64,000 nucleotides of DNA from a virus (lineage: Duplodnaviria; Caudoviricetes). The stretch lies in IMG/VR virus record IMGVR_UViG_3300005259_000074, positions 160,001 through 224,000 of that record; one strand, written 5' to 3'. A program made the translations under genes and the position numbers. Under the pieces are notes generated by a model. It saw only the letters and a program-made list of their open reading frames with translations, was not told where the DNA came from and searched no databases. This document shows, in pieces, positions 5,784 to 57,962 of this stretch; position 1 is the stretch's first letter, and every line of letters starts with the position of its first letter.

Positions 5784-6399
5784 CCAGTCTCACGAGATCC
5801 TTCCACCATTTCCAGAACAGGCTACTAGAGCTATAGAAGTAGCTGCGAGGACGTGTTACAAGTCAGAACGGCTCATCGATCACGATGAAGAGTCTGACGT
5901 AGAACTCTGCAATAAGTTGATCATCAGAGATCACACTGCTATGCTAGAGTTCGCTGATATCACCGTCAGATTCATCACCGACCGCGGTGTCACCCATGAG
6001 TTAGTCCGTCACAGAGTCTGTAGCTTCGCACAGGAGAGCACTCGGTACGTGAGGTACGACGGGAGCATGGAGTTCGTCAGGCCTGTGTGGTTCAAAGAGT
6101 GCCAAGTAGAAGGTGCAGTCAACCCGTCTACTATCTGGTTCGACGCCTGTCTAGCATCTGAGAACGCTTATCACTCGATGATCGAGTGTGGTTCGACACC
6201 TCAGGAAGCAAGGCAAGTCTTGAACAACAGCGTCAAGACGGAGATATGCATGAAGGCGAACGTCAGAGAGTGGAGACACATATTCAAACTCAGGACGTCT
6301 AAAGCAGCTCACCCGCAGATGAGGGCGTTGATGATGCCCCTGCTCGAAGAGTTGAAGTCCAGACTTCCGGTGTTGTTCTCAGACATCATTCCCAAGTAG
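5770..6399 (+). CDS. thyX: FAD-dependent thymidylate synthase
   Basis: RGVTHELVRHRVCSFAQESTRY, WRHIFKLR...AHPQMR; start set to MKIIN at 5770. Confidence 0.93.
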   Translation: MKIINQSHEILPPFPEQATRAIEVAARTCYKSERLIDHDEESDVELCNKLIIRDHTAMLEFADITVRFITDRGVTHELVRHRVCSFAQESTRYVRYDGSMEFVRPVWFKECQVEGAVNPSTIWFDACLASENAYHSMIECGSTPQEARQVLNNSVKTEICMKANVREWRHIFKLRTSKAAHPQMRALMMPLLEELKSRLPVLFSDIIPK

Positions 6400-41751: not shown

Positions 41752-42116
41752 TTCTTACTCCCAATCTTCATGTGTTCTTGGATGGACTTGACTAGCTGTG
41801 AGTTGAACATCTTAGGATACACGTGGATCAGTATCTCCAAGTAGTCTTTTGCGTCGAGAGCGTAGCGCCTGAGCTGAGCCTTGAAAAAGTCTTTGTCTTT
41901 CAGCGCGCGGCGGAGCTTCGGTTCTACTTCCTCCGGAGTCGCGACTTCGAACTCTCTGACATAGTCGTTGACTATCGATTCGGAGTCTATGTTGACCATC
42001 ATCTCCCGGTCGACGTTGTCTCCTATCGAAAAAGGGTGGTTGTCTGCGTGGATATCGTTCATTAGATGTGTCTTTTCATATAGATCCCAGTCCATCGAAG
42101 ACTGAGTCGACTGCAC
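41739..42116 (-). CDS. Hypothetical protein
   Basis: 125 aa ORF. Confidence 0.55.
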   Translation of the reverse strand: MQSTQSSMDWDLYEKTHLMNDIHADNHPFSIGDNVDREMMVNIDSESIVNDYVREFEVATPEEVEPKLRRALKDKDFFKAQLRRYALDAKDYLEILIHVYPKMFNSQLVKSIQEHMKIGSKKCKR

Positions 42117-43476
42117 TCTTGGCAGTTTCTTCTCGTTTCTCTTCCAGATCTGTCACCCTCAAGTTGGAGTAATTGATGAAGAATTCTAGCACCTTTCCAA
42201 TCTTCCCTCCAAACCTGTTCTTGAGGACTTTCATACATATTCGTCCAGCTTCGGCGTCGCCTTCTTGTTGAAAAAGGGCCCCAATGAAGTCTGACGTGTG
42301 GTTGATGCCCGCGGACTCGCTGACGTCGGCCATTGATACTTCAGCTGTGTCGTAACCCATGCGTCCGACTTGCGAAGCTGAGATGACCGGCACGCCAAAT
42401 ATGTAGCTGAGAGCTCTGAGATCGCGGGTGACATCACCGACTTTCTCGTACATGCTCATGTTGTTGGACTTCGTGTTGGGACAGAGGAGATTGATGTAGT
42501 CTACGATTATGACGTCGGGTTTCTTACCCATCGCGACGAGTTTGTCGATGTAAGACTTTATGTGCTTGCTCGCTATGGTGTTAGGAGGATACTCCTTTAT
42601 GAACAGCTCTGCGTTCTTGTGAAAGTCTTTGAACGACAGTATCTTCTCTCTGACTTTCGGTATCTGCACCTGGATGGAATTGATGTCATTTCCCGACAGC
42701 AGCGCGTCTATCCTCTGCCCGTACACGTCTTCGCTCATCTCCAGCGTGATGATCGCTACTTTAAGGTCTTGCGCGAGATAGTTGACGGCGAGGTTCGACA
42801 TGAACATAGACTTACCTAAGCCGGGTTGGGCTAGGAATGTGACGAGACACTTTCCAGTCTTCCAGAACCCGCCGTTCGTCACGTTATCGAGGTCCGTCAA
42901 CTTCGAGAGGATCTTCGCCTCTGGATTAGCTAGGACGTTGAGGTGGCGCTCCAAGTCTTTGAAGTACTCGAATCCCAGAGATTTGTCCATGCTGATCGTC
43001 ATGACTTTGTTCATCTTGTCGATGACGCACGCGACATCTTTAGACTTCTCTATGTCATCGAGAGAGTCCATTATAGCGTAGTACATCGTCTTGTTCTTGA
43101 TGAACTCGATGAACTTGTCTTTGATGAACGTATCGTCGCCCGATAAGTCCAGTTCTAGAGAGCTGTCGAAAGTAGAAGTCAGAGTCTTGAGGTCTACTTT
43201 GAGGTCTCCAGCTCGTTTCGACAGGAGAGCTTCTAGCACAGCTCTCGAAGGCATCTTTGCGTAAGATGAGTAGAAAGACAGCAGTACTTTGACTACGTCT
43301 CCGACTCGGGAGTTCTCGTCGAAGAACCGTCTGTCGTAGTGCTCGAACAGCTTAGACGCGCAGTCTAAGTCTGTGTACACCTTCTTGAGCACTATCTGCT
43401 CGACAACTCCATCCGGAAGGGTGACATCCTTACTTATGACGGATGGGTTGTTCTTTTTCTCAGCAGGATTGACCAT
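42076..43476 (-). CDS. Replicative DnaB-type helicase (gp41-like)
   Basis: AQPGLGKS, ITLEMSE, IIVDYI, SASQVGR, KNRFG. Confidence 0.93.
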   Translation of the reverse strand: MVNPAEKKNNPSVISKDVTLPDGVVEQIVLKKVYTDLDCASKLFEHYDRRFFDENSRVGDVVKVLLSFYSSYAKMPSRAVLEALLSKRAGDLKVDLKTLTSTFDSSLELDLSGDDTFIKDKFIEFIKNKTMYYAIMDSLDDIEKSKDVACVIDKMNKVMTISMDKSLGFEYFKDLERHLNVLANPEAKILSKLTDLDNVTNGGFWKTGKCLVTFLAQPGLGKSMFMSNLAVNYLAQDLKVAIITLEMSEDVYGQRIDALLSGNDINSIQVQIPKVREKILSFKDFHKNAELFIKEYPPNTIASKHIKSYIDKLVAMGKKPDVIIVDYINLLCPNTKSNNMSMYEKVGDVTRDLRALSYIFGVPVISASQVGRMGYDTAEVSMADVSESAGINHTSDFIGALFQQEGDAEAGRICMKVLKNRFGGKIGKVLEFFINYSNLRVTDLEEKREETAKSAVDSVFDGLGSI

Positions 43477-43484
43477 GAGTTAAT

Positions 43485-44696
43485 TTACTCCACTTCGACC
43501 GTGTCGTTCTCTGTCGAAGTGGGTTCTGATGAAGGAGCGCTTTCTTCACCGCTATTCTCAGTCAGCATCTTCTCGAGGTCAGCTTTGGAGTAAGACATAT
43601 CGGCTTTCGATTTCTCGTTGAAAGCATCCAAGAACGTCGCCCATATCGCGTCGTTAGTCTCGATGTCCTTCCGACGAAGCTTGACATCTCGATAAGATGG
43701 GACTGTGTAGTACGCCCCCTCTTGCTTTATGAAACCGTATGAGATCGCAGCTTCGATCAGGCCGTCGTACTTTGCGATGCCACTGGTGAAGTCGACGTAC
43801 ATCTCAGCCTCGAAGAACGGCTTGACTATCCTGTTCTTCGCGGTGAAGAACCTGAGCATGTTGCCCTTGTACGTAGCTTCATCGCTAGCTTCTTCGGTCT
43901 TCACGAAGCGCCTGTCGCACTGGATGGATATCGTCGGGATGTATTTAGTGCCCTTGCCGCCGCCTTGCTCTTTGATCTTCGAAGGATACATCTGGTTAGT
44001 AGCGTCGTAGATGTGGTTGATGACGAGGATCGGAACATCGGACTTCATCGACGGTATAGTCAGACTCTTGAGGAGTGTGTTGCAGAGCCTCGCCCTAAGA
44101 CCCATGTCCATCACTTGCTTGTCTTTGTCGACCGCGTCAGTGTACACCTTGTTGGTGACCAGAGCGCCGAGTGAGTCGAGGATTATCATGAACTTCGAGT
44201 CTTCGTTTCCAGGTTTTGTCTTGTACTCATCTAGAGCTGACAACACTTTCAACATCTGTTGGGTGGCATTCTCAACGCTCTCGCAGAGAACGTGCTCAAT
44301 CTTATCAGGATCGAGATTGAAACCGGTCATCATGTCAACGAGACCTCCACCCTCGGAGTCGAAGTAGAATATGTGGCTGTACCCGTGTTTGTTCACCGCA
44401 TTTGCGGCGATCCTAGCGGCAATGAGGCTCTTGCCCGACGCAGACTCACCAAACAGCATAGTCACGCGGCCTGCGGGAATGCCACCGTAGATGTCTCCGC
44501 TAACGATGCGGTTGAGAGCGAAACACCCGGTGTCGACGTAGTGAGACACGTGGGAGTACTTCGCATTCTTAAAGCTTGCAGAACCTGTCTCCTTGCGGAT
44601 GCCTTTCAACAAGTCTCCTAGTCCCTTTGATGGAGCTTTCTGCTCTACTTCTGTCTTGTCTTTCTTAGCCATTTGTTCTCCTGATTTTGAGTTCAA
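43485..44696 (-). CDS. RecA-like recombinase (UvsX-like)
   Basis: GESASGKS, FDSEG, ILDSLG, GGGKG.KY. Confidence 0.92.
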   Translation of the reverse strand: MNSKSGEQMAKKDKTEVEQKAPSKGLGDLLKGIRKETGSASFKNAKYSHVSHYVDTGCFALNRIVSGDIYGGIPAGRVTMLFGESASGKSLIAARIAANAVNKHGYSHIFYFDSEGGGLVDMMTGFNLDPDKIEHVLCESVENATQQMLKVLSALDEYKTKPGNEDSKFMIILDSLGALVTNKVYTDAVDKDKQVMDMGLRARLCNTLLKSLTIPSMKSDVPILVINHIYDATNQMYPSKIKEQGGGKGTKYIPTISIQCDRRFVKTEEASDEATYKGNMLRFFTAKNRIVKPFFEAEMYVDFTSGIAKYDGLIEAAISYGFIKQEGAYYTVPSYRDVKLRRKDIETNDAIWATFLDAFNEKSKADMSYSKADLEKMLTENSGEESAPSSEPTSTENDTVEVE

Positions 44697-45887: not shown

Positions 45888-46739
45888 TCAGTTGTTGTTC
45901 CAGAGCCACTCGAAGAATTTGTCTCTGCTTATCGGCGCTTTTCCTTCAGTCATTCCCGAGATGTCCAAGAAAGGACTCCCGTCAGTGTACACTGGAGGCA
46001 TGTCAATCCTAGGTAGTTCTACGGGGATGAAAGGCTTCTCCAGCATCTTGTTCACTAGGTCAAAATCTCTCTCGTAGATGTGGAGAGACACCGCATGGTG
46101 TGTGTACGATCCCAATTCCAAATCACGATACGACGGAAGCAGCTGTTTCCGCATGACCTGCATCAGGTACAGGAAGAACGGAATGTCAAAACAAGTGCCG
46201 AGCACTGCGTCGTTAGACCTCATGATAGTCGACAAGTTCAACTTGTTGTCTCTGATGTTGAACACCGCATTGAGAGTGCACACGAAGTCTTTGACACCAG
46301 GATAAGATACTTTCGGTTTGTTGAACCTAATGATAGCTTGACGGGTGTCTTTATCGTCCACTAGACTTCTGTACGCCCAAGTCCATTCTGTCAGACCGTG
46401 TTCGTTCTTCTCGTTGAAGATCAATTTACCGTAAGCAGAATTGCAAGTTCCATCTTCGTTGGCTATCTTCTTCCAGAACTTCGAGTACTTCTCGATGAAC
46501 TCTAGGTCATTCCTCCCGGAGAAGTACCAGAGCAACTCGCCTTTCAAGTACTTCATTGGGATAGACCTGACTTCGTTCTCGAAAGAATTGCTCCAGCAGT
46601 CATCTATGTGGATGACGGCATCAGTTATCTCGCGTATCTTCATCCCTCTCGGGGATGTGACGAAATCGGGCTTGTTCATTATCTCATTCAGCGCGCATCC
46701 GTAAGCTTCCGCGAACGTCTTCCCTCTTATCTCTCTCAC
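45888..46739 (-). CDS. Thymidylate-synthase homolog of dCMP-hydroxymethylase type
   Basis: DFVCT (catalytic Cys), MRSNDAVLGTCFD with Asp at the E. coli ThyA N177 position, SLHIYERD. Confidence 0.8.
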   Translation of the reverse strand: MREIRGKTFAEAYGCALNEIMNKPDFVTSPRGMKIREITDAVIHIDDCWSNSFENEVRSIPMKYLKGELLWYFSGRNDLEFIEKYSKFWKKIANEDGTCNSAYGKLIFNEKNEHGLTEWTWAYRSLVDDKDTRQAIIRFNKPKVSYPGVKDFVCTLNAVFNIRDNKLNLSTIMRSNDAVLGTCFDIPFFLYLMQVMRKQLLPSYRDLELGSYTHHAVSLHIYERDFDLVNKMLEKPFIPVELPRIDMPPVYTDGSPFLDISGMTEGKAPISRDKFFEWLWNNN

Positions 46740-47272
46740 CAGCGTTTCTCCTCTGCTATCTGATCGAGTATCGAATCTGCTATGTCACGCGGTGAAGAAC
46801 TTAAGTCAGTTCTCACGGTGCGAAGATAGAACGGGCTGTGCTTGCAGAACACCGAGAATTTGCTCTGTAGTAGATCAATGTCTTTCACTGGAGGAGCAGT
46901 CTCGCCTCGAGATAGATGCCGCTGATGGACTATCTCCGGTTTGCACTCGACAAAGACGAGAGCGATGGGTAGAGATTTCCAGTGTTCTTCCAGACCTCGC
47001 AAATATTCTGGGTACCTATCTCTGTACTTCGGCCCGTACACGTACTCACCGGCCCATGCTCTGTCTAAGACCAAGTTGCCTTCCATGATGTTGATCATCT
47101 CGAACAGCATGTCGAACTGGCCGAACTGGAAGCCGTACTTCTCTTCGACAGAGTTTCCTTTTGGGAAGGCGAAGTGGAACTGCTTTGCGTTCAGCGATCC
47201 GATCAACTCAGAGCAGATCGAGCTCTTACCCGAGCAGTCGACTCCCTCTAACACTATAGTCCTAACAGGCAT
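46736..47272 (-). CDS. dNMP/thymidylate kinase-like
   Basis: LEGVDCSGKS, LDRAWAGEYVYG. Confidence 0.82.
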   Translation of the reverse strand: MPVRTIVLEGVDCSGKSSICSELIGSLNAKQFHFAFPKGNSVEEKYGFQFGQFDMLFEMINIMEGNLVLDRAWAGEYVYGPKYRDRYPEYLRGLEEHWKSLPIALVFVECKPEIVHQRHLSRGETAPPVKDIDLLQSKFSVFCKHSPFYLRTVRTDLSSSPRDIADSILDQIAEEKRW

Positions 47273-47318
47273 TTGAAATCCTCCAGTTCGCTAGATTAGA
47301 ATACCTCTTAGACCCATC

Positions 47319-48548
47319 TCAGAGGTGAGTGATAGGCTGAGAATCGACTATCTTGACGAACTTCTGCCCATCGAATCCCTCTACTGACTTCGTCTCGTCG
47401 TTGTACTTGACAAAAGAATAGTTCGTCATCTCACCTTCACCGCGGATGAACGGCAAGACTGCTGCGACCATGTCTCTAGCAGTGCACGTCGGTACATTCT
47501 GCGCGACCATGTTGATATTCTTGCCGTTGATCTTCACCTTAGGATTGCTGTCAACTCCTGCAAGATTCATGTCATGTGGTAGTCCCATCAAGTGCATCCA
47601 CTCTCTGACATTTATCCAGCGGTCCTTCTTAGGATGGATACCATTCCACAGCACTCGGCCTTGGACTGCGTTGATATGGGAGTTGGGGATAATTATCGTG
47701 TTATCCCAGACACCCTTTCCCTCCGCAAGTTTCATGATGAGGCGTTTGCACATCCTCAGAGTGTCTTTGTCTCCCATCTCCTCGCAAACTTTCATGAGTC
47801 CTGCGACGTAGTCAGGATTCTTGTAGATCATGCTCGTGACAGATTTGCAACCGTCGATATGGTCTCTGAAATTCTTACCGAACTGCTTGACCATCCAGTT
47901 GTAGCTTCCGGACACATCCTCGAGCTTGTCGAATCCGTGTGTGAAGTGCTTTTGGTACGTGGCATTCTTCGGAATGTCTTTCAAATAGGCGGAAAGATCC
48001 GGAGAATCGACGTTAGGCATGACGATGCTCGGGCACTTATTGCTTTTGAAGAACACGTAGAACGTGCGGTGGCGATGCTGTGGTATGCCGTGGAGATATG
48101 TGTCAGTCTTAAGCAGCATCAAAGACCTGTTGTACTTCTTAGCGATGTCCAACAGCGCATTCTGCACTTTGACTCCCGACTGGGTGAACAACCTCGGAGC
48201 GTTCTCCCCCATCGCGACAGTCGCATCGAACCTACCGAGGGCGTCTTCAGCGCTCCTGTACACCCACTTTATCGACTCGTACTCAGCCGAAGACTGAGAA
48301 TTGAGAGAGCTAAGCGCGCTACAAGGCGGGGTCATGACGATTAAATCGTATTTCTCCGATTTTGGAGCTGTCTCAGAATCCAATGACACATATGGGACGT
48401 CTTTCCAATATTCTACGAGATTCGTATCGTGTCCTTGAAATCCATCATATGAGTAGATCATATGAGGTTTTGATCCTATGGCCTTAGATGCGCCGAGGGG
48501 AAATCCTCCTATCAGTGGAATTAGTGGTGCCCATTTGATGCCCTTCAT
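47319..48548 (-). CDS. C5-cytosine methyltransferase-like protein
   Basis: PPC (IV), GENAP (VI), PQHRHR (VIII), VRE...MGLP (IX); motif I deviant (PLIGG). Confidence 0.7.
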   Translation of the reverse strand: MKGIKWAPLIPLIGGFPLGASKAIGSKPHMIYSYDGFQGHDTNLVEYWKDVPYVSLDSETAPKSEKYDLIVMTPPCSALSSLNSQSSAEYESIKWVYRSAEDALGRFDATVAMGENAPRLFTQSGVKVQNALLDIAKKYNRSLMLLKTDTYLHGIPQHRHRTFYVFFKSNKCPSIVMPNVDSPDLSAYLKDIPKNATYQKHFTHGFDKLEDVSGSYNWMVKQFGKNFRDHIDGCKSVTSMIYKNPDYVAGLMKVCEEMGDKDTLRMCKRLIMKLAEGKGVWDNTIIIPNSHINAVQGRVLWNGIHPKKDRWINVREWMHLMGLPHDMNLAGVDSNPKVKINGKNINMVAQNVPTCTARDMVAAVLPFIRGEGEMTNYSFVKYNDETKSVEGFDGQKFVKIVDSQPITHL

Positions 48549-49753
48549 TAATGCTCCTTGGTTATTGAGGCGACGGCTTTCATCACAGTGTCATCGAGAT
48601 GATCGCCGTTGAAATACTTGTCAGCCATGAGGCTGTATATGTGGTCTAATATCTTATCGTACTCATCTTTGTGAGTCTCCAGATGCTCTATCCTATCCCA
48701 CATCTCCTTAGGAGTGTTGACTCTGAGTATCTCGGGAACATCGAACAACTTATCGACATCGTACTTGGGGTGGAAGAACGGGATGATGCCGTAGTACAGC
48801 ATCTTCCAGAATTTCTGCGTCACGAATCCCGGTAGTTTCTTGAAGAACGGTGGAATGAAAGTGTACTTACTGTCCCAGAATATGAACTCGACGTTCTTTA
48901 TAGCGCACTCCTCGAATACGCCCGGCCACTTAGCCGTGAAATCTTTATCCCACTTTCCGTATATCTTCATGCCGTCACGGTGAGAAGGATCATTCAAGAG
49001 CCATTCTTCGACTATGCCTTGACGATCGCCTCCGCCGTTCAACCCCATGACGAACTTCGTAGACTTCTTCATAGTCCTGAAGTCTATCTTCGGTTCATCG
49101 AGTAAGAACACTGTCTCCACTCCGGCGTATTTGAACTTGTTCTCCGCCATGCGGTACTCTTGTGAATCGTACTTTCCTCCGGCTATCCTCCGGTTGTACT
49201 TGGTGATGTTGATCTGAGACAGGATGAATTTCTCGTCGTTCAAGATGTCTCTGGATTTCTTCGGAATATACCGGGGGTCACCATTGATGAGGAAATACGG
49301 AACTCCCGTCATGTTGAGAGTATGATATATCGGAGCTGCATACACTTCGAACATCAACAGGCACTTGGCATCGTGCAGTTCGCCCATCACAGTCTTCGTC
49401 CCGACGCCTGGGACGTTGATTCCACCTTCCGGCCCTTGGTATATGATTCCAGCATCGAACTTTATTCCAGTCTCCTGCACCTTTTTAAGCATCCAGTGGC
49501 ACAGTTCTTTCCGGCAGTCCTTGATCCCCACTGGTATGTCTTTGAACATATCTACGATGTTATCGGGGATGTCTATGCCGGACAGACGAGCTTTCTTGAT
49601 GTCAGACCTGCCGATCAAGAAGAATTTGTCCTCCGGATGTCGGCGCGCTAGCATCGTGTACAGCAGAGGAGCTTCTTCATCTCCTGCGTACATTGACCAC
49701 TTGCGTTTGTCGAAATATATCGAACGGCCGATCTTACCTATCAAGTAATTCAT
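48548..49753 (-). CDS. GT-B glycosyltransferase, T4 beta-glucosyltransferase-like C-terminus
   Basis: KFWKMLYYGIIPF...LRVNTPKEMWDRIEHL resembles the C-terminus of T4 BGT. Confidence 0.6.
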   Translation of the reverse strand: MNYLIGKIGRSIYFDKRKWSMYAGDEEAPLLYTMLARRHPEDKFFLIGRSDIKKARLSGIDIPDNIVDMFKDIPVGIKDCRKELCHWMLKKVQETGIKFDAGIIYQGPEGGINVPGVGTKTVMGELHDAKCLLMFEVYAAPIYHTLNMTGVPYFLINGDPRYIPKKSRDILNDEKFILSQINITKYNRRIAGGKYDSQEYRMAENKFKYAGVETVFLLDEPKIDFRTMKKSTKFVMGLNGGGDRQGIVEEWLLNDPSHRDGMKIYGKWDKDFTAKWPGVFEECAIKNVEFIFWDSKYTFIPPFFKKLPGFVTQKFWKMLYYGIIPFFHPKYDVDKLFDVPEILRVNTPKEMWDRIEHLETHKDEYDKILDHIYSLMADKYFNGDHLDDTVMKAVASITKEH

Positions 49754-51345
49754 ATGAGTCCATCTTTCTTCAGTAATTTTGTCAGCATGTTCTTCCCCAA
49801 ATAATACAGAAACAGGACGTAAGGCCAGTCATGCAGCGCGGCAATATTGAGGTATATGAGAGCTGTGAGGTAGTCAACCTTCTTCACGTCGTATCGGTTG
49901 CTCTTCAACCACTCGTCGAACGCCTTCTCCACTTCAACTAAACGGTGCGGTCTATCGATGTCGATGACTGCATGATTGTCATCGATATTTTTCACCATAA
50001 ATTTCCCCTCGTGCACCGATTTGTGCGGGACTATCAACCCGTGCTTGAACTTCGCGAAGTCGTAGTAAGCGTCGCCAAATTCTCTGTCACCGCAGAAATT
50101 TTGCCGCCAGTCGAGGAGACCTGGTGTCCCATCATCTTTGATGATGATGTTCTCGTTGTGAAAATCTCCGTGGAACCTCGATATGTGATAGTCATTCGTT
50201 AAGAATTTCCAAGGGACTCTGTCTAGAAGATCTTTCGTGTTGTTGCCGTTGGGATCTAAGTCATTTATGATGTCGACTTTATCAGTCATCTCGAAGTTTT
50301 TGTAGAACTCGCTAACCCTCTTGTACGTCTTGATCCTATAGAATTCATCCATGACTTTGTGTTGGTCGACACCAGTGATGCGAGGAGATCTCACATTCCA
50401 CATCTTGTCTTTGACTTCATCGAGAACTTTGATGACGTTGACGTCATTGACGACGTCGGACATGATGGTTCCCTCTATCAATTCATAGGTGTAGCAATAC
50501 TCGTTGTGGGACAGCAGTTGGGGGAGAAGTTCTATCGGAAGATTCAGCATCCTCTCGACTCTGTCGGAAATGAACTTCTTATCGACTGAGAACTTGATGA
50601 CTTTGTCATCATGAAACCAGATGGCTTCTCCGTCTTTCTCCAATATGTTATGCTCAGTGTCTCTGAACTTCTTCTTAGCGGCTTCGAGGGCCAGCACGTT
50701 TCCCGTGTCGTACCATTCTCTGATCTCAACCCCCTTAATGTTGGTCAACGACTTGAGCGCATAAGACTCACCCACAGGCACAGCTTCACTCTCATGCATG
50801 TGCTTCCAGAACAGCTGATAGTCTTTAACACCACAGAGTCCGATGTAAGCGTTGCGGGCGCCAAAAGCGTCTTTGGGATTTATAGAAGCCACGTTCCCGA
50901 CATCATCGAGTGTGATGGTCCGATACTTTGATGCATCGGATTTCGCGTCGAGAACGTAATACGCCATCCAATTGTTGCGAGTTGGATCGAAATCAATCAC
51001 ATCTTTCGCTATAGTGTCATTGGAACAGAATACGAATGGACACTGCAGTTCGCTCTCTGCTGACAAAAGGGTGTAGCCTAGGCCGGACTTAGGTCCTTCG
51101 TAGTCGTCGACTGTGACAAAAGTCTTGTTGACATGGGGGAATATCTGCTCTACTACGGCCTTAACCATGTCACCTTTGTACCCGAGTATGATGACGAACT
51201 CGTCAGCGTGAGGGAAAGACTCGATGATGTGCGCGATGACCGGGATCTGCCCGATAGTCAACAGCGCTTTATTGATGTTCTTCGAGTAGTCTCTGACCCT
51301 CGTCCCAAGACCGGCAGTCGGAATGACGACTTTATACTTACTCAA
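49750..51345 (-). CDS. Nucleotidyltransferase fused to APH/choline-kinase-like domain
   Basis: VVIPTAGLGTR...NKALL; HGDFHNENI...LLDWR. Confidence 0.85.
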   Translation of the reverse strand: MSKYKVVIPTAGLGTRVRDYSKNINKALLTIGQIPVIAHIIESFPHADEFVIILGYKGDMVKAVVEQIFPHVNKTFVTVDDYEGPKSGLGYTLLSAESELQCPFVFCSNDTIAKDVIDFDPTRNNWMAYYVLDAKSDASKYRTITLDDVGNVASINPKDAFGARNAYIGLCGVKDYQLFWKHMHESEAVPVGESYALKSLTNIKGVEIREWYDTGNVLALEAAKKKFRDTEHNILEKDGEAIWFHDDKVIKFSVDKKFISDRVERMLNLPIELLPQLLSHNEYCYTYELIEGTIMSDVVNDVNVIKVLDEVKDKMWNVRSPRITGVDQHKVMDEFYRIKTYKRVSEFYKNFEMTDKVDIINDLDPNGNNTKDLLDRVPWKFLTNDYHISRFHGDFHNENIIIKDDGTPGLLDWRQNFCGDREFGDAYYDFAKFKHGLIVPHKSVHEGKFMVKNIDDNHAVIDIDRPHRLVEVEKAFDEWLKSNRYDVKKVDYLTALIYLNIAALHDWPYVLFLYYLGKNMLTKLLKKDGLI

Positions 51346-52052
51346 AGTGCTTCTCCTATGAGTTTTCTCAAGTTGCAGATATTCTGGTGTATAGTGTTCC
51401 GTCGATCATCTCTGTTAGACGGAAGATTCTTAAAGATTGTCGAGGTCCCACACACGATGTTGTTGAATGCCATATTGGTGATGTCCTTGACAGTAGTAGG
51501 TTTCACCCCACCATCTAGCTGTATCATGTCGAGTTCTTTGCCGAAACGAGCATTCATCTCCCTACCGATAGTTATCGCGTGGAATTCGCGTGAAGTCTGG
51601 ACCAACACGCCCGGGTGTATGCCCATCATGACCAGCATGTTGATCTCGTTAGCTCCGATGACGTAATCGAGATGGTGGTAGTTGGACGTCAAGTTCATTG
51701 CGATGCCGGGTTTCTTTCCTCCAGCGCGGATCCTATCGCACAGCCGATAGGTGTTCTCCTCGTTTCCATCAAAATGGAAATTGATGTACTCGACATTAGC
51801 TATCTTAGTGAATGCATCTATGGCCAGTGTTGGTTCATCGACCATCAGGTGGACATCCATCGGGATATCAGTAGTGTCAGCGATGCGCGATGCGATTTCA
51901 GGATATATCCCGTAACGTGGGACATAGTGTCCGTCCATCACGTCAATGTGCATGTAGTCGACACCAGCGTCGACGCATGTCTTCACGTCTTCACCAAGCG
52001 TCATCGGATCCATGCATATGACTGACACTGATATGAAATTCTTGTCTATCAT
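51342..52052 (-). CDS. rpe: Ribulose-phosphate 3-epimerase
   Basis: HIDVMDGHYVP, DVHLMV, QLDGG. Confidence 0.9.
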   Translation of the reverse strand: MIDKNFISVSVICMDPMTLGEDVKTCVDAGVDYMHIDVMDGHYVPRYGIYPEIASRIADTTDIPMDVHLMVDEPTLAIDAFTKIANVEYINFHFDGNEENTYRLCDRIRAGGKKPGIAMNLTSNYHHLDYVIGANEINMLVMMGIHPGVLVQTSREFHAITIGREMNARFGKELDMIQLDGGVKPTTVKDITNMAFNNIVCGTSTIFKNLPSNRDDRRNTIHQNICNLRKLIGEAL

Positions 52053-52056
52053 CGCA

Positions 52057-52599
52057 TCACTCCAAAATTGAATGGTTGTAGCTGATCCATCTAGCATCAA
52101 GCTGAAGGTCTTTCACTATATCGTGAGCCATAGCGTCGAACAGAACGAATGTGAACTGCTCAAATGCAGTCTTCATCATCTGTTTGGACTTGAAATCACC
52201 ATAAGTGAGACACACTGAAGACAACTTTCCGATCGGTGTGTCGCTCGATGAGCACACCGATATGATCGTCGCTCCAGCATCTTTAGCCTGGGATGCCAGC
52301 AGTGCGATCGTCGGAGTAGATCCGGAAGATGAATTGACGATCACCAAATCACCGGAGCCCACTCGTGGGACTACGGTGTCGCCGATGAACGTCGCATCAT
52401 AACCGATGTGTCCCAACCTCATGATGAAAGCTCTGAGAGAGTAACCCATGCGACCTGCGCCCAGACCGACGATCTTCTTATCGATTCCTTTTCTGATCTT
52501 CAGCTCTCCGATGAAATCCTTGTATTTCACTTCATCCAACGATTCATACAATTCGGTCATCTCGTTGATAGATGTCAGGAAACTGCCTCCGGTGATCAC
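52057..52599 (-). CDS. SIS-domain sugar-phosphate isomerase (HxlB/KdsD-like)
   Basis: GLGAGRMG, DLVIVNSSSGST, FEQ. Confidence 0.85.
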   Translation of the reverse strand: MITGGSFLTSINEMTELYESLDEVKYKDFIGELKIRKGIDKKIVGLGAGRMGYSLRAFIMRLGHIGYDATFIGDTVVPRVGSGDLVIVNSSSGSTPTIALLASQAKDAGATIISVCSSSDTPIGKLSSVCLTYGDFKSKQMMKTAFEQFTFVLFDAMAHDIVKDLQLDARWISYNHSILE

Positions 52600-53093
52600 T
52601 TGTTCATCTCCTTTATTATCATCTGAGCTACATAGAATAACACACCCTCTCCTCCTCCGACTGGAAGTATCTTCACATTAGAAGGAAGATCGATGAATCT
52701 AGTGCGCGACGCCGTGTCTATCAGAGAGTTCTTCGGAGCGAAACCGACCTCACACAACTTCATTGCTTCTACGTCATAATAGCCATCGCCGACAAAAGCT
52801 ACTCCAGAATATGGATCTCCATTGATTATGTCGCTGATGAACTTAATTCTCTCAGATTCAGACACTTGGTGTGATTCTACTTTCATGTCAATAAGACGAC
52901 ACTCAGTGATAGGCCAACCGCGCTTGTCAGCTGATATGGCTATGATGTTGATACCAGCGTTTCTTAACATCTTCACGCCATCAGCGTCATGTGCGCCAAA
53001 TGTCTTTGACTGTTTACCGTCTTTGGTGTAGACGAAACGTCCATCAGTCAGAACACCGTCTACGTCGGTGATCACAGTCTTAATGTGCAGCAT
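52596..53093 (-). CDS. KdsC-like HAD phosphatase
   Basis: DVDGVLTDG, DADG, FVGDGYYD. Confidence 0.88.
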   Translation of the reverse strand: MLHIKTVITDVDGVLTDGRFVYTKDGKQSKTFGAHDADGVKMLRNAGINIIAISADKRGWPITECRLIDMKVESHQVSESERIKFISDIINGDPYSGVAFVGDGYYDVEAMKLCEVGFAPKNSLIDTASRTRFIDLPSNVKILPVGGGEGVLFYVAQMIIKEMNK

Positions 53094-53162: not shown

Positions 53163-55757
53163 TCACAAAGAGTTGATATCTGACACTTCTTCTTTAGTCG
53201 GGTCAAAGCTCTTCCAATTGTGGTTCCTCTCGAATCCCTTCAGAGGACTGAGCACGACTTTCTCGAACATGGTCATGTAATCTATCGCAAACATCTCGTC
53301 GAACTCGGTCGGCCACGTGTCTTTCCAACCTATGACCTCTATGCCGTAGTCGTTCCTCTTCACGTAGACGTACCTCAGCCTATCACCTGGCTGTATAGTC
53401 TGGTACTTATGCGCTAAGTTCAACTTCTCAACGAGTTGGTTGTAATATATCGCACCTTTTGCATGAGCTCCCGCGCCCTTCCCAGCTTTCAAGAACCCAA
53501 TGACTTCTTTCTCCGTAGAGTAGTTCTTAATGTATCCCAGGTCTTCAGGCTTCATAGAGGTGAACGCGTTCCACGTCGATGATATGAAATCTCTGTACTG
53601 GGATGAAGTCCATTTTTCAGTCATTCCCCGCTTTATCGCATCTGCTAAGATGCCTTTGACTTTGAACGGCAGTTCGTTCTTCTTGACATCTACACCGACG
53701 AATTTGAACTTGTCGACCGAGAGACCTTCTAGATCTCTCAAGTGGAGGACGTAGTGTTTCTTCGCGATGAAGTCTCCTTCGCTGCACAGAGTCTCCCTTT
53801 TGAACTCGATTCGTTTCAGAGGAGAACCGAATATCTCCTTAGTCACCCTGAAACAGTTCTCATTCATTCTATTGACAAAATTGTCATCCAACTCTCTGCA
53901 TATCTTCTGGATGTTTGTCTTCGTCCATTTGACGTCGCCGGAACCTACTACCTTCTCTGTCATCTTACTTAAGTCAAGATATAGACTGTCCGTGTCGCCA
54001 GCAATGACGATATCTGAAGTAGCACTATACATCTCAGAAAACAACTTGTTAGCATACTCAGCTGATTCTTTGATGATCCTCTGACCGGATAGAGTAACAG
54101 CTTCAGCGTTGTCTAGGTCGTATAGAGGAAAGTGCTCACTACCTACTTGTCCATAGATGCTGTTCAAGAAGACTTTGTACGCGCCTTGAATGATGTCGTG
54201 CTGGTCGGCTTGCTTCTTCAGTTCTTTAATCTGCGTGTCATCTTTAGACATTCCATTCTCGATCAGCGCTTGTGCTTTCTTCTGAAAAGTCTGAGCTTGT
54301 TTTTTATGACTCTTCCTAGAATCATACAGTTTCTCGAGGAAAGATGGAATGATGCCTTTCTTCACATCTGGAAGAATGTAGAGAACTTTGTTGTTTGAGA
54401 TGATCGACTTCGTGCGAAGAGCAGCAAACTCGTCTTTCGACAGTCGCTTGATCTTTCCGTCGGCTTTCTTTATCTCGACGTAACCGTCCATCTCCTGTGT
54501 GACTTTGCCTATCTTGGTCTCAGGAGATATGTTGAGAGTTATCATCGTGTTCGGGTACAGAGAGTTCAAGTCGAGGGATGTCACCCCTTTGTCGAAGAAT
54601 CCGACTTGCGGCTCGAAGACAAATGCGCCTTCGAACCCCTCGTTCTGACCTTTATCATCTCTCGAATCAGATAGCAGTTTCACGCCGTTCTTTCGCGCCT
54701 GGATCGTGAGAGCTCCGTAGATGTAGGGCTGAGACTTGAAGATGTTCTCATATTCGACTAACCCCATGTTGCATATGTATCGAGTCAGATCAATGAATTT
54801 CTTCTTCTTGTCTAACTTCACGCACAACTCTACGTCTCGCACGTTGTACTTGACGAAGAGGTCGAAGTCTTTCTCGGCGAACTCTCTGATAGTGTCGTAT
54901 GGATTCTTTATCTTAGTCACACCCAGTTCATCAGCGCAGATGTCGCCGAGTTTGTACGACTCTTTCGATCCAAGCTCGAACTTCGCTTTGTAGAGGATGT
55001 AGTAGTCGAGGATAGACACTCCAGTCACCTTATAAGACGCTATCGGCATCGAGTCTCCCCGCTGCTCGCGGTAGCTCTTCCTCACTTCTCCGAGGGGGGA
55101 CAAGACGTTGATCGCTCCATCGTCTAGTATCTTGTCGCAGCGGTTGACTAAGTAAGGCAAGTCGAACCGCTCGACGTTCCACCCACTCAGTACGTCCGGA
55201 CAGTTGTCTTTCCACCACGAGAGGAAAGATTTCAACAGTTCTGTCTCGTCGTCAAAGCAGAGCAGTTCTGTCGGCACTTCACTGCCAGACAAGTCGGCTG
55301 TCCCGAGAGTCCACGTGTGATACTTTTCACTCAGCGTGTCAAACACTGTTATCACGTTGACGGGTTCTTTGGCTTCTTCTGGCTCCGGGAATGCGTTCTT
55401 GACTTGCACTTCTATGTCCAGAAAGAACGTCCTGAGGGGGAAAGATGCGAAAGCTGGAGAATCTATCACATTCTCAAACTGCTGGACTAGGAATTCTCTG
55501 GCAGGGGGAAGACACTCGAATATCCTACAATCTGGATTCTGGTTGAGCCACTTGCGGCGCAATGATATGTTGGTGAAGTCTTTCCTGCGCAGCATGGTGC
55601 TGAACATCGATTTCACCGAACCCCTGATGTCTTCGTAATAGAGGTACGAATTGTGGGGGAACACTCTGGTGACGCGGTTGCCGTTCTCGTCCCACGTGAA
55701 CAGCACGATTTCACCCTGGAACGAATCATTGATCCTGTAATGGATGTTTCGGTACAT
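53163..55757 (-). CDS. Family B DNA polymerase (gp43-like)
   Basis: Exo DIE, GWN...FD.PY; pol DLNSLYP, K...NS.YG, GDTDS. Confidence 0.97.
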   Translation of the reverse strand: MYRNIHYRINDSFQGEIVLFTWDENGNRVTRVFPHNSYLYYEDIRGSVKSMFSTMLRRKDFTNISLRRKWLNQNPDCRIFECLPPAREFLVQQFENVIDSPAFASFPLRTFFLDIEVQVKNAFPEPEEAKEPVNVITVFDTLSEKYHTWTLGTADLSGSEVPTELLCFDDETELLKSFLSWWKDNCPDVLSGWNVERFDLPYLVNRCDKILDDGAINVLSPLGEVRKSYREQRGDSMPIASYKVTGVSILDYYILYKAKFELGSKESYKLGDICADELGVTKIKNPYDTIREFAEKDFDLFVKYNVRDVELCVKLDKKKKFIDLTRYICNMGLVEYENIFKSQPYIYGALTIQARKNGVKLLSDSRDDKGQNEGFEGAFVFEPQVGFFDKGVTSLDLNSLYPNTMITLNISPETKIGKVTQEMDGYVEIKKADGKIKRLSKDEFAALRTKSIISNNKVLYILPDVKKGIIPSFLEKLYDSRKSHKKQAQTFQKKAQALIENGMSKDDTQIKELKKQADQHDIIQGAYKVFLNSIYGQVGSEHFPLYDLDNAEAVTLSGQRIIKESAEYANKLFSEMYSATSDIVIAGDTDSLYLDLSKMTEKVVGSGDVKWTKTNIQKICRELDDNFVNRMNENCFRVTKEIFGSPLKRIEFKRETLCSEGDFIAKKHYVLHLRDLEGLSVDKFKFVGVDVKKNELPFKVKGILADAIKRGMTEKWTSSQYRDFISSTWNAFTSMKPEDLGYIKNYSTEKEVIGFLKAGKGAGAHAKGAIYYNQLVEKLNLAHKYQTIQPGDRLRYVYVKRNDYGIEVIGWKDTWPTEFDEMFAIDYMTMFEKVVLSPLKGFERNHNWKSFDPTKEEVSDINSL

Positions 55758-55795: not shown

Positions 55796-56638
55796 TCAGA
55801 TGCTGTCGAGGACTTTTCTGATTTCTTCTTCGAAGCGGCATTCCTTCAAAATGCTGACGATCTTGGAGAACTTATCAGATGGAATTCGCTGAAAATCAGT
55901 TGAACCACCGTTGGCGAAATAAGATACGGTGTCAGAAGAAGTAGACAGTCTGAAATAGTTATTGCCTTTCAGGAAGTCTAGGCTGAAATTTATCGACAAC
56001 CCGGATGTATCATTTGCGGCGTTGTCATAACTTATTCCCGGTGGGTTGACGAGGTAGTAGTGCTTGTAGTTCTTTCCTAAGAGGCGCTTGAGCTTCAGGA
56101 GTCCACCCCAGAAATACTCGAGGTCTGGCGGTTCCGTCCAGCCGAACTGACCGTAGTGCTTTGGGTCTTTCCTGAGCAAGTTGGACCTGTACCCGGAGAT
56201 AGACAGGGGGTGGTCAACCCAAACTGGGCGCTTCACGTAGGCATTCACATACGCTATCTTCGGTAAGTAGTCTTTGGTGACGTCGAGGTCTTCGTATTCT
56301 TTGAACAGCTGGATAGACACTATGGCCGCGGTGTTGGGTCCTGTAGCTGGATTCGGCGAGGACATCAGAGCTGATGCTTCGTCGAGCATCTTTCGCGCAA
56401 GATTCTCCCTGTAACCTCTAGCTCGGAATTCGTTGCAGCAGATGAAAAAATAGGCGACTAACGCCTGAGAATATCCTTGCCACATCACGAAAGCGGGATG
56501 TCTTCTCCACGCCTTCTTCTCTCTGTCGAGCAAGAGGTGTATCATCTGATAGCACTCTAGCCGTTGCTTTCCGAGCCTCTTAGTGTCCAGACACCTGACG
56601 CTAGAGAGAAAGTTGTCGTAAGGCATGAATGTATTCAC
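55796..56638 (-). CDS. Pyrimidine-dimer glycosylase/DenV-like domain plus C-terminal extension
   Basis: MNTFMPY...LDTKRLGKQRLE...HPA..MW.GY...SNLLRKDP. Confidence 0.78.
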   Translation of the reverse strand: MNTFMPYDNFLSSVRCLDTKRLGKQRLECYQMIHLLLDREKKAWRRHPAFVMWQGYSQALVAYFFICCNEFRARGYRENLARKMLDEASALMSSPNPATGPNTAAIVSIQLFKEYEDLDVTKDYLPKIAYVNAYVKRPVWVDHPLSISGYRSNLLRKDPKHYGQFGWTEPPDLEYFWGGLLKLKRLLGKNYKHYYLVNPPGISYDNAANDTSGLSINFSLDFLKGNNYFRLSTSSDTVSYFANGGSTDFQRIPSDKFSKIVSILKECRFEEEIRKVLDSI

Positions 56639-57126
56639 AAGTTGAACTTCTCGACTACGACGTTATTCTTTAGCAGCATCTCTTTGACTTCATTGTCGTC
56701 AAAGCCGTATTCAGCTCTACAGTACTCATCGCTGTAGACTATTCTTTTGACTCCAGCTTGGATTAACATCGGAAGACAGCGACAACACGGCTGTAGAGTG
56801 CTAAACATAGTCGAGCCTTCGATCTTCACCCCGTTCTTAGCGGCAGCTAAAATCGTGTTGAGCTCCGAATGTATCTCATTTTTGAGAGACCACTCGTGGT
56901 GTTCTCTCCTCTCTTCATCCATGATGTATCCGGCGTCTTTCCACTGAGGAAACTTGTCGCAGCAGTTGATAGATCCCGCGACAGTCCCGTTGACGCCCAT
57001 AGAGACGACTCTGTCATCTCTGACGAGGATCGCTCCTACCTTTATAGACACACACTTAGACAACTTAGCTGCGGAGAAGGCCATCTCCATGAAAACTCGG
57101 TCTTTAAGAGAGCTCATCGCTCTCAC
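56635..57126 (-). CDS. dCMP deaminase
   Basis: IHSELN, PCCRC. Confidence 0.9.
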   Translation of the reverse strand: MRAMSSLKDRVFMEMAFSAAKLSKCVSIKVGAILVRDDRVVSMGVNGTVAGSINCCDKFPQWKDAGYIMDEERREHHEWSLKNEIHSELNTILAAAKNGVKIEGSTMFSTLQPCCRCLPMLIQAGVKRIVYSDEYCRAEYGFDDNEVKEMLLKNNVVVEKFNL

Positions 57127-57395: not shown

Positions 57396-57962
57396 TTAGG
57401 TGATACCGTTGCCAGTCGAACCAAATCCGTCACTGCCGCGCGTAGATGTGAATGAGTAGAGTTCATTCACACTCGCGATCTCCACTAGTTCTTCGTCATT
57501 TATCGGGATCATCACTAGCTGAATGATCTTCTCCCCTGCTGATATACTTACGGAAGTGTCAGACAAGTTGGCGATAGATATGTGTGCTTCACCTTGGTAA
57601 CCTGCATCTAACAGGTTTGCCATGAACACTATGCCTTTTTTGGAAGACACGCCAGACTTATTGCAAGCGATCAGCGCCCAACCTTTAGGGATGTCAAAAT
57701 GAATCCCTGCTGGTATTTTCACTCTGCCGAGAGGGCCGATCACTATAGATGACACGATTTCATCTTCAGCACTCTCATAGATATTGCATATCTTAGAACG
57801 GAAGGTCACATTGAATGAATCATGAAAATTGAAATTGCCTCGACGCAGATCAGTGGGTACAAACATATCAAAACCTGCGTCAAGGGCATGTCCCCTGACA
57901 GGAGACTTGACGTCTCTTACCTTCGAGAACCTTATCTTAGGATACTTCACACTTTCCTCCAT
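57396..57962 (-). CDS. dut: Trimeric dUTPase-family protein
   Basis: AGFD, NKSG, LLDAGYQG, IQLV, RGSDGFGSTG. Confidence 0.9.
   Translation of the reverse strand: MEESVKYPKIRFSKVRDVKSPVRGHALDAGFDMFVPTDLRRGNFNFHDSFNVTFRSKICNIYESAEDEIVSSIVIGPLGRVKIPAGIHFDIPKGWALIACNKSGVSSKKGIVFMANLLDAGYQGEAHISIANLSDTSVSISAGEKIIQLVMIPINDEELVEIASVNELYSFTSTRGSDGFGSTGNGIT

Follow-up and report, generated by a model that had tools for sequence, protein, structure and literature searches.

A predicted operon for glycosylated 5-hydroxymethylcytosine in the genome of a T4-like phage

A compact series of eight genes next to the family B DNA polymerase gene (polB) of a T4-like phage raises the question of which base of the phage DNA these genes modify, and with what. 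The genes lie in a stretch of 64,000 nt (the window) that comprises bases 160001-224000 of the 262,470-bp IMG/VR record IMGVR_UViG_3300005259_000074, which is 97% complete. From polB onward, they encode a HAD phosphatase, a single-domain SIS sugar-phosphate isomerase, an Rpe-family ketose-phosphate 3-epimerase, a nucleotidyltransferase/kinase fusion (NTK), a GT-B glycosyltransferase (GT), an atypical DNA C5-methyltransferase-fold protein (MT-like), a TMK-like P-loop nucleotide kinase, and a ThyA-fold thymidylate-synthase (TS) homolog. An initial annotation of the window had read the series as a pathway that places a pentose on cytosine, comparable to the arabinosylation of RB69-like phages. 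An open reading frame (ORF) check found all eight genes where that annotation had put them, all on the minus strand, with gaps of less than 70 nt or overlaps of 1-4 nt between adjoining genes, and each has supporting family or fold matches. The operon probably makes glycosylated 5-hydroxymethylcytosine (5hmC), which would replace cytosine in the phage DNA.

The module recurs in other viruses. Genes for TS, dCMP deaminase, HAD, SIS, Rpe, NTK, GT, and MT-like proteins are collinear in 12 IMG/VR contigs, retrieved by a scan with the NTK protein as query, at 33-52% amino-acid identity, and the grouping is therefore not due to chance. The dCMP deaminase gene stands between TS and HAD in relatives L007-L012. 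The core of TS, HAD, NTK, GT, and MT-like genes is also found at loci L019, L022, L027, L115, and L116 and in the cultured Pseudoalteromonas phage XG4. A megablast search for near-identical DNA, with the 7.2-kb region as query, gave no match in the phage collection.

Predicted base and its glycosyltransferase

The base is indicated by the TS homolog (45888..46739; PF00303, 2.9e-21). In an alignment with the annotated sequences of E. coli ThyA, T4 gp42, and RB69 gp48, it has the pattern of T4 gp42 (L143D, C146, D169, N177D, and W80 in E. coli numbering), to which it is 31% identical, whereas RB69 gp48 has L143E, D169N, and W80A. Aspartate at the ThyA N177 position is the determinant for dCMP, and W80 and D169 bind folate in ThyA. 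The TS homolog is thus of the dCMP type. The DNA of RB69 and DLP3 contains arabinosylated 5-hydroxycytosine and not arabinosyl-hmC, and the ThyA homologs of these phages are flavin-dependent 5-hydroxy-dCMP (5hodCMP) synthases marked by D169N together with N177D and L143E/D (PMC13326640). Because D169 is kept beside L143D and N177D in the window, the predicted product is 5-hydroxymethyl-dCMP (5hm-dCMP) and not 5-hydroxy-dCMP, and the TS homolog is predicted to be a dCMP hydroxymethylase. RB69-like arabinosylation, the comparison drawn in the initial annotation, needs correction here, its chemistry having been revised to arabosyl-5-hydroxycytosine and the window enzyme having retained W80 as well as D169. 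The gp42-type signature also occurs in the TS of LR756500, Enterococcus phage 9183, phage XG4, and eleven metagenomic loci, and in every TS that adjoins an MT-like gene of the family with at least 33% identity.

The TS homolog is the sole ThyA-fold gene found in a search of the genome, which also encodes ThyX on the plus strand (5818..6372; PF02511, 4.2e-43, above the cut-off). It is thus not required for dTMP, and we infer that ThyX supplies dTMP and frees the ThyA-fold enzyme for cytosine modification. The claim that cytosine and not thymine is hypermodified, with a phage-encoded route to a nucleoside diphosphate (NDP) sugar, is supported.

The kinase next to the TS gene (46736..47272; PHROG 761, thymidylate kinase, 7.8e-13) is weakly similar to RB69 p045 and to the TMK gene that adjoins TS in phage 9183. 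Since tblastn found no homolog of T4 gp1 anywhere in the genome, it is the only candidate found for the phosphorylation of 5hm-dCMP and would be the 5hm-dCMP kinase. Genome searches for MazG and PRA-PH enzymes gave no match; a search for dGTP_diPhyd_N also gave none, although the control genomes were equally silent and absence is not shown. The only candidate found in the genome for the role of T4 gp56 is a dUTPase-fold protein with a 70-aa N-terminal extension (57396..57962, minus strand; PF00692, 1.5e-14; NF001862, 1.6e-22), which is read as a dUTPase that possibly also depletes dCTP. A dUTPase gene adjoins TS at L019, L022, and L025 and in phage 9183. As the family signatures suggest, the gp42-type enzyme would convert dCMP, perhaps supplied with the aid of the dUTPase-fold enzyme, to 5hm-dCMP with methylene-tetrahydrofolate. 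The TMK-like kinase would phosphorylate this product, a host NDP kinase would finish 5hm-dCTP, and the phage family B polymerase would incorporate it. The synthesis of dTMP would be kept apart by ThyX and a dCMP deaminase (56635..57126, minus strand; PF00383, 3.5e-21).

The GT (48548..49753; 401 aa) has no clear Pfam match. Its AlphaFold model (pLDDT 94, from a 50-sequence alignment) has a GT-B fold similar to that of T4 beta-glucosyltransferase (BGT), the enzyme that glucosylates 5hmC in T4 DNA. Six T4 BGT entries, headed by 1bgt (4.5e-7), 1nzd, and 1c3j (all three at or below 1.4e-6), lead the Foldseek search of PDB with E-values of 4.5e-7 to 2.6e-6, and GT4-type and other GT-B enzymes rank close behind. 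The BGT-like nature of this protein, already proposed in the initial annotation, is thus borne out. Phage proteins also match in BFVD, one of them named ‘DNA beta-glucosyltransferase’ (1.4e-26). Homologs with 28-32% identity occupy the same slot in phages 9183 and XG4 and at L019, L022, L027, L115, and L116, and no similarity to the RB69 arabinosyltransferase (p046/47) was detectable. Based on its modeled fold, the GT is predicted to be a DNA 5hmC glycosyltransferase, which would place the sugar on the 5hmC hydroxyl in DNA after replication.

Sugar supply and activation

The NTK (49750..51345; 531 aa) matches the NTP_transferase, NTP_transf_3, and APH families and PHROG 4098 (4.7e-17), with a GLGTRV motif at the N-terminus and an APH-type HGDFHNEN loop in the C-terminal half. 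It is a putative bifunctional enzyme resembling AfhE, with an N-terminal sugar-1-phosphate nucleotidyltransferase and a C-terminal APH-type anomeric sugar kinase. BLAST detected weak homology to ORF047 of phage 9183 (1e-13), RB69 p053 (3e-5), and RB69 p052 (0.002), the latter two being one gene, equivalent to AfhE, that was split through a sequencing error. As RB69, DLP3, and HY126 already have AfhE, the fusion is not an addition to the RB69 inventory, as had been supposed, whereas the Rpe and MT-like genes are real additions relative to RB69. In the AfhE route, arabinose-5-phosphate is phosphorylated at C1 by AfhE, the 5-phosphate is removed by AfhF (a HAD phosphatase), and UDP-arabinose is then formed by AfhE (summarised in PMC13326640). 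A 1,5-bisphosphate is thus formed first, which reverses the order of dephosphorylation and 1-phosphorylation given in the initial annotation.

The HAD phosphatase (52596..53093; TIGR01670, 1.1e-17; PDB 1j8d, 2.3e-14) belongs to the KdsC/YrbI family of HAD-IIIA and has a DVDGV motif; its score lies below the TIGR01670 cut-off (64 vs. 107 bits). It has no BLAST similarity to RB69 p051, an AfhF-type HAD, and may strip the terminal phosphate from a sugar bisphosphate. A KDO-type (CMP-ulosonate) reading of this KdsC-like enzyme was set aside because the nucleotidyltransferase is of the sugar-1-phosphate type and fused to an anomeric kinase, and because no KdsA or KdsB is found in related clusters.

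The SIS protein (52057..52599; PF01380, 9e-9) best matches TIGR03127 (PHI/HxlB; 1.7e-31), whereas KpsF/GutQ reaches merely 0.0036. The TIGR03127 match is full length (profile positions 6-178 of 178), though its score is below the curated cut-off (109.5 vs. 160 bits). Relatives in PDB are 1vim, 1jeo (MJ1247), and 1m3s (YckF), and BLAST found no similarity to the RB69 arabinose-5-phosphate isomerase (API, p055). The enzyme is therefore PHI/HxlB-like and not an arabinose-5-phosphate isomerase of the KdsD/GutQ type.

The longest ORF of the Rpe-like epimerase (51342..52100; PF00834, 1.5e-36) has a TTG start and overlaps the SIS gene by 44 nt, although an alignment of seven relatives favors an ATG at 52052 as the likely start. 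The protein scores 136.6 bits against TIGR01163, below the cut-off of 212.6, and is nearer to true Rpe (PDB 4nu7, 2.4e-26) than to AlsE (3ct7, 5e-20). The catalytic His/Asp/His/Asp residues are kept, and the beta6 substrate loop PGFGGQ is changed to HPGVLxQxS in the window and in seven phage relatives; PGF(G/A)GQ or PGYGGQ is present at about 55 of 80 bacterial Rpe loci. None of these 80 ordinary loci, collected in a scan with the Rpe-like alignment, has a SIS, HAD, or NTK neighbor, so they give no clue to the sugar. The protein atlas returned generic family names only for the Rpe-like and SIS proteins.

PHI converts D-arabino-3-hexulose-6-phosphate to fructose-6-phosphate. This is the arabinose-5-phosphate isomerase reaction plus one CH2OH, with identical stereochemistry, and a PHI-like enzyme could thus yield D-arabinose-5-phosphate from ribulose-5-phosphate (Ru5P). 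On the model of the AfhE/AfhF route, a central ketose phosphate would pass through the Rpe-like epimerase and PHI-like isomerase to become an aldose omega-phosphate, most economically from xylulose-5-phosphate (Xu5P) through Ru5P to D-arabinose-5-phosphate. C1 would then be phosphorylated by the C-terminal kinase of the NTK, the terminal phosphate, on a sugar of arabino configuration in this reading, removed by the KdsC-type HAD, and the NDP-sugar formed by the N-terminal nucleotidyltransferase. D-Arabinose is a possible sugar, with another pentose or a hexose also possible, and the SIS protein acting on Xu5P would equally give D-lyxose-5-phosphate. The pentose of the initial annotation is therefore not established. 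Relatives differ in their supply genes, as L019, L022, L027, XG4, and phage 9183 are without SIS and Rpe and have an AfhF-type small HAD, and a HIGH-type cytidylyltransferase is used instead at L115 and L116. Donor supply thus behaves as a module, and different subgroups probably attach different sugars.

One of these relatives is a cultured phage of Enterococcus. The locus of phage 9183 (L002:5254-10206; MT939241.1), found also in phages Planchet and TJE4, consists of genes for TMK, gp42-type TS, dUTPase, small HAD, NTK, and a GT related to that of the window, and no MT-like gene. The gene content predicts that these three phages, which are therapeutic candidates, would carry an undescribed glycosyl-5hmC.

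The C5-methyltransferase-like protein

The MT-like protein (47319..48548; 409 aa) matches PF00145 (4.7e-13) over profile positions 57-307 only. Its model (pLDDT 91.6) folds nearest to M.HaeIII (Foldseek, 1.6e-13) and M.HhaI, with DNMT1 also among the matches. A phmmer search of the single sequence against solved structures gave no match, and the relationship required a family profile and a fold search. The window protein contains the catalytic motifs TPPC (IV), ENAP (VI), and QHRHR (VIII), along with RE..MGLPHDF and QNVP, and 94 MT-like sequences share motifs IV (PPC), VI (ENAP), VIII (QxRxR), IX, and X without variation. Motif I is invariantly IIPLIGG in this family. An hhalign comparison sets IIPLIGG on LFAGIGG of Dcm, so that, relative to the canonical FxGxG, Phe is replaced by Ile and the first Gly by Leu. 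The motif II Glu position is variable, and motifs I-III lie outside the matches to Pfam and to profiles of solved methyltransferases. In an exhaustive profile search, the family comprised at least 467 clusters (50% identity) at E ≤ 1e-30, well apart from ordinary C5-methyltransferases. Among the best 150, PL[IVL]GG was present in the first 80 residues of 114 of 141 newly returned representatives, the others being possibly truncated.

At its C-terminus, the metagenomic member P0251 (598 aa) carries a CXXC zinc finger (PF02008, 29.7 bits, above the cut-off), a type of domain that recognizes CpG without modification, and this zf-CXXC is the lone Pfam match among the fusion partners examined. Long extensions (350-1000 aa) in members P0212, P0217, and P0235 match no Pfam family. 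A predicted complex of the GT and MT-like proteins scored 0.00, which carries no weight either way.

The MT-like gene stands in a gp42-type TS operon at all 12 loci with enough upstream sequence. On otherwise unrelated phage backbones it mostly follows directly the enzyme expected to decorate the hydroxymethyl group, often with overlapping stop and start codons; in the window its start overlaps the GT stop by 1 nt. It directly follows a BGT-like GT in the window, at L007-L018, and at L019, L022, L027, L115, and L116, whereas a second GT-like ORF separates the two in XG4. At L025 and L026, it follows a 484-aa protein with the helical domain of a 5-hmdU DNA kinase (HMUDK; PF18723, 6e-7, above the cut-off). 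In cyanophages S-TIM5 and S-TIM54, more distant homologs (29% identity, IIPLVGG) adjoin a ThyA of the dCMP type. The literature searched contained no description of the association of TS and MT-like genes. Based on these sequence and context patterns, we conclude that gp42-type cytosine hypermodification has the MT-like protein as a conserved core partner, whose cofactor site is putatively non-canonical.

Several of these loci differ in the rest of their operons. L025:2603-11150 and L026 (JGI 3300012952, a 241,978-bp contig) belong to a marine phage with DnaE polymerase, and the genes of their gp42-type TS operon stand in the order TS, DUF6378, dUTPase, a 356-aa ORF, myo-inositol-1-phosphate synthase, Methyltransf_21, a 138-aa ORF, the 484-aa kinase-like protein, MT-like, and NAD epimerase/dehydratase. 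As judged from this gene content, the operon possibly encodes an undescribed cytosine hypermodification with a phospho- or inositol-type adduct on 5hmC. L117:4782-12733 (Logan ERR3804376) has the MT-like protein (40% identity) and TS (45% identity) nearest to those of the window, and its neighbors are an HbpS-like protein and a pair of radical-SAM enzymes, of which one has a SPASM domain, with no GT or nucleotidyltransferase. It is another candidate hypermodification chemistry, on the same TS-RNaseT-RecA-DnaB backbone as in the window. L011:10834-13136 has two tandem MT-like paralogs after the GT, with 34% and 29% identity to that of the window. In Pseudoalteromonas phage vB_Psh_XG4 (L031:145-6568; PP712099.1), the order is TS, small HAD, NTK, GT, the second GT-like ORF, and MT-like. 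XG4 is an isolate with a known host and a ready experimental model; its record is unannotated and flagged UNVERIFIED_ORG.

The MT-like protein may be an ordinary orphan C5-methyltransferase dependent on S-adenosylmethionine (SAM), an anti-restriction add-on unlinked to glycosylation. The fold shared with M.HaeIII and M.HhaI, the intact catalytic motifs, the frequency of orphan methyltransferases in phages, and the fusion of one relative to a CXXC domain would all suit such an enzyme. Its constant place in gp42-type operons, directly behind a GT or an HMUDK-like kinase across unrelated backbones, the invariant IIPLIGG with an unconserved motif II Glu, and the small amount of substrate left once C is replaced by 5hmC argue against it, and we regard this reading as doubtful. 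Our leading guess, held with slightly less than even confidence, is that the protein would act as a core partner on cytosines that escaped replacement, through a cofactor site unlike canonical SAM sites. Action on 5hmC itself appears rather unlikely, and some other role, with ordinary methylation included, only slightly less so.

A broader proposal can be made only tentatively. Instead of a SAM methylase, the MT-like protein would be a second core enzyme in an extensive and hitherto undescribed group of cytosine hypermodification systems in marine phages, and would use Cys-C6 covalent catalysis either to place a non-methyl group such as hydroxymethyl on escaped cytosines or to activate the 5-methylene of 5hmC. 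Around it, decorating modules would be interchangeable, namely a BGT-like GT with an NDP-sugar route, an HMUDK-like kinase with inositol-phosphate synthase, or radical-SAM enzymes. The PHI-, Rpe-, and KdsC-like cassette of the window would then supply a sugar new to DNA, e.g., a rare hexose or, from Xu5P, D-lyxose or D-xylose.

Alternatives, known systems, and genomic setting

Three further explanations compete with glycosylated 5hmC. In an Afh-type pathway, as in RB69, DLP3, and HY126, the TS homolog would make 5-hydroxy-dCMP, and UDP-arabinofuranose would be ether-linked to cytosine O5. Genomic position, inventory (TS homolog, TMK-like kinase, HAD, SIS, nucleotidyltransferase/kinase, and GT), and the distant homology of the NTK to RB69 p052 and p053 agree with it. 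We nevertheless consider it improbable, as the diagnostic D169N is absent with W80 and D169 retained, the GT, SIS, and HAD have no detectable similarity to RB69 proteins, and the GT is nearest to the 5hmC-specific T4 BGT. It is slightly less probable still that the GT and its NDP-sugar are used for a glycan outside the DNA (on a virion protein, the host envelope, or a small molecule) and that only the TS and kinase concern DNA. A relative of the nucleotidyltransferase/kinase (35% identity) does lie amid NDP-sugar epimerases in Marine virus AG-345-E15, with no TS, GT, or MT nearby; however, the top solved structural match of the GT is a DNA glucosyltransferase, and in every relative the NTK and GT genes are interleaved with those for TS, dCMP deaminase, dUTPase, and the DNA-methyltransferase-like protein. 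The least probable explanation, to which we give very little weight, is a thymine target, with 5hm-dUMP made by the TS homolog for SPO1- or ViI-type hypermodification. It would accommodate the nearby dCMP deaminase and dUTPase and the tblastn matches to annotated dUMP hydroxymethylases (~28-38% identity), but the N177 position is Asp in the window and in all relatives, and ThyX is present for normal dTMP.

Several points weigh against glycosylated 5hmC itself. Its support, for this and the related phages, is inference from sequence and fold, and the rule that separates D169N from D169 comes from one paper (PMC13326640). The fold similarity of the GT to BGT is modest (TM 0.5-0.65, 12-13% identity). 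The genome searches yielded no MazG-type dCTPase, so complete replacement of cytosine is not assured. With the SIS, Rpe-like, and HAD proteins below their family cut-offs and the Rpe loop altered, the arabinose route is only one option. Finally, 5hmC offers no C5 to methylate, and a conserved C5-methyltransferase is thus unexplained by T4-type logic.

Among described systems, the Afh clusters of RB69, DLP3, and HY126 (Lee et al., NAR 2026; PMC13326640) likewise lie between polB and uvsX and combine a ThyA-fold enzyme acting on dCMP, a TMK-like kinase, a bifunctional anomeric kinase/nucleotidyltransferase, a HAD phosphatase, a SIS isomerase, and a GT-B transferase whose substrate is DNA. The resemblance to RB69 seen in the initial annotation holds for the layout, with only the polB-uvsX position, NTK fusion, and TMK-like kinase shared in the narrower sense. 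Differences are the lack of D169N in the window TS, for which 5hmC and not 5-hydroxycytosine (5hoC) is predicted, a PHI-like and not GutQ/KdsD-like SIS, a KdsC-type and not AfhF-type HAD, a BGT-like GT unrelated in sequence to p046/47, the extra Rpe-like and C5-methyltransferase-like genes, and the lack of the U32-peptidase-like p050. The T4 system (gp42, gp1, gp56, and alpha/beta-GT) shares the gp42-type signature, the BGT-like fold, dCMP deaminase, and the genomic slot (polB ... gp42, b-gt ... uvsX). However, the window phage would make its own NDP-sugar, whereas T4 draws on host UDP-glucose, and it has a TMK-like kinase for gp1, ThyX for td, and an added MT-like gene, with no MazG-type gp56 dCTPase found. 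As judged from its genes, the operon is T4-like at the base and transferase level, Afh-like at sugar activation, and a member of neither: Afh is marked by D169N and by API- and AfhF-type enzymes, and T4 by gp1, gp56, and reliance on host UDP-glucose, and the operon departs from both in these features.

Other phage systems share parts of this arrangement. The MT-5mYOX(TET)-GT clusters (Burke et al., 2021, PMC8256090; Pyle et al., 10.1101/2023.12.21.572611) have a C5-methyltransferase gene beside a DNA GT with 5hmC as acceptor, whereas in the window 5hmC would come from the TS homolog before replication, and motif I of the MT-like protein is atypical. A genome search for TET/JBP (5mYOX) gave no match, although the control genomes were also silent and absence is not shown. 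In the CmoX/CmoA/CmoY system for 5-carboxymethylcytosine of Synechococcus phage S-B43 (PMC12783734; PDB 8yf3), CmoX is a phage C5-methyltransferase homolog with an xPPC motif, whose cofactor is Cx-SAM and not SAM and whose product can be hypermodified further. The MT-like family is no nearer to 8yf3 than to M.HhaI, its partners are TS and GT instead of CmoA and a ligase, and CmoA had no match in the genome search. Shewanella phage Thanatos, a distant T4-like phage, encodes a nucleotidyltransferase/phosphotransferase fusion (TH1_060) next to a TS homolog, and its cytosine was shown by liquid chromatography-mass spectrometry to carry a pentose (PMC12838424). Lee et al. (PMC13326640) class the Thanatos TS homolog as a 5hodC synthase with D169N, and MT-like, Rpe, and PHI-like genes are not reported there.

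The wider surroundings are those of a T4-like replication region. Upstream of polB (53163..55757, minus strand; PF00136, 6e-33) are a DenV-like pyrimidine-dimer glycosylase (55796-56638), the dCMP deaminase, and the dUTPase-fold protein. The glycosylase matches PF03013 over residues 1-82, and its further ~200 residues have no family match. Downstream of the cluster follow an RNase T-type exonuclease, a 174-aa ORF without assignment, UvsX/RecA (43485-44696), and a DnaB-like (gp41-like) helicase (42076-43476), and this order of polB, cluster, uvsX, and helicase is that of the T4 and RB69 maps. IMG/VR labels the record a ‘provirus’ excised from a 313,637-bp contig. To our knowledge, an integrated prophage would not be expected to have a T4-like replication module, and the label or the contig join is therefore questionable.

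Hypermodification protects phage DNA against restriction enzymes and CRISPR nucleases, and systems of this kind provide biotechnology with DNA-modifying enzymes. The operon predicts a glycosyl-5hmC with a phage-encoded sugar route unlike those of T4, which uses host UDP-glucose, or RB69, which uses API, AfhF, and 5hoC. As the core module is present in cultured XG4 and distant MT-like homologs occur in S-TIM5 relatives, this prediction is directly testable in cultured phages. The MT-like proteins form a large C5-methyltransferase-fold family with a remodelled cofactor site and, in T4-like and further marine phages, are tied to operons of the gp42 type, and there is a real chance of new chemistry in this enzyme.

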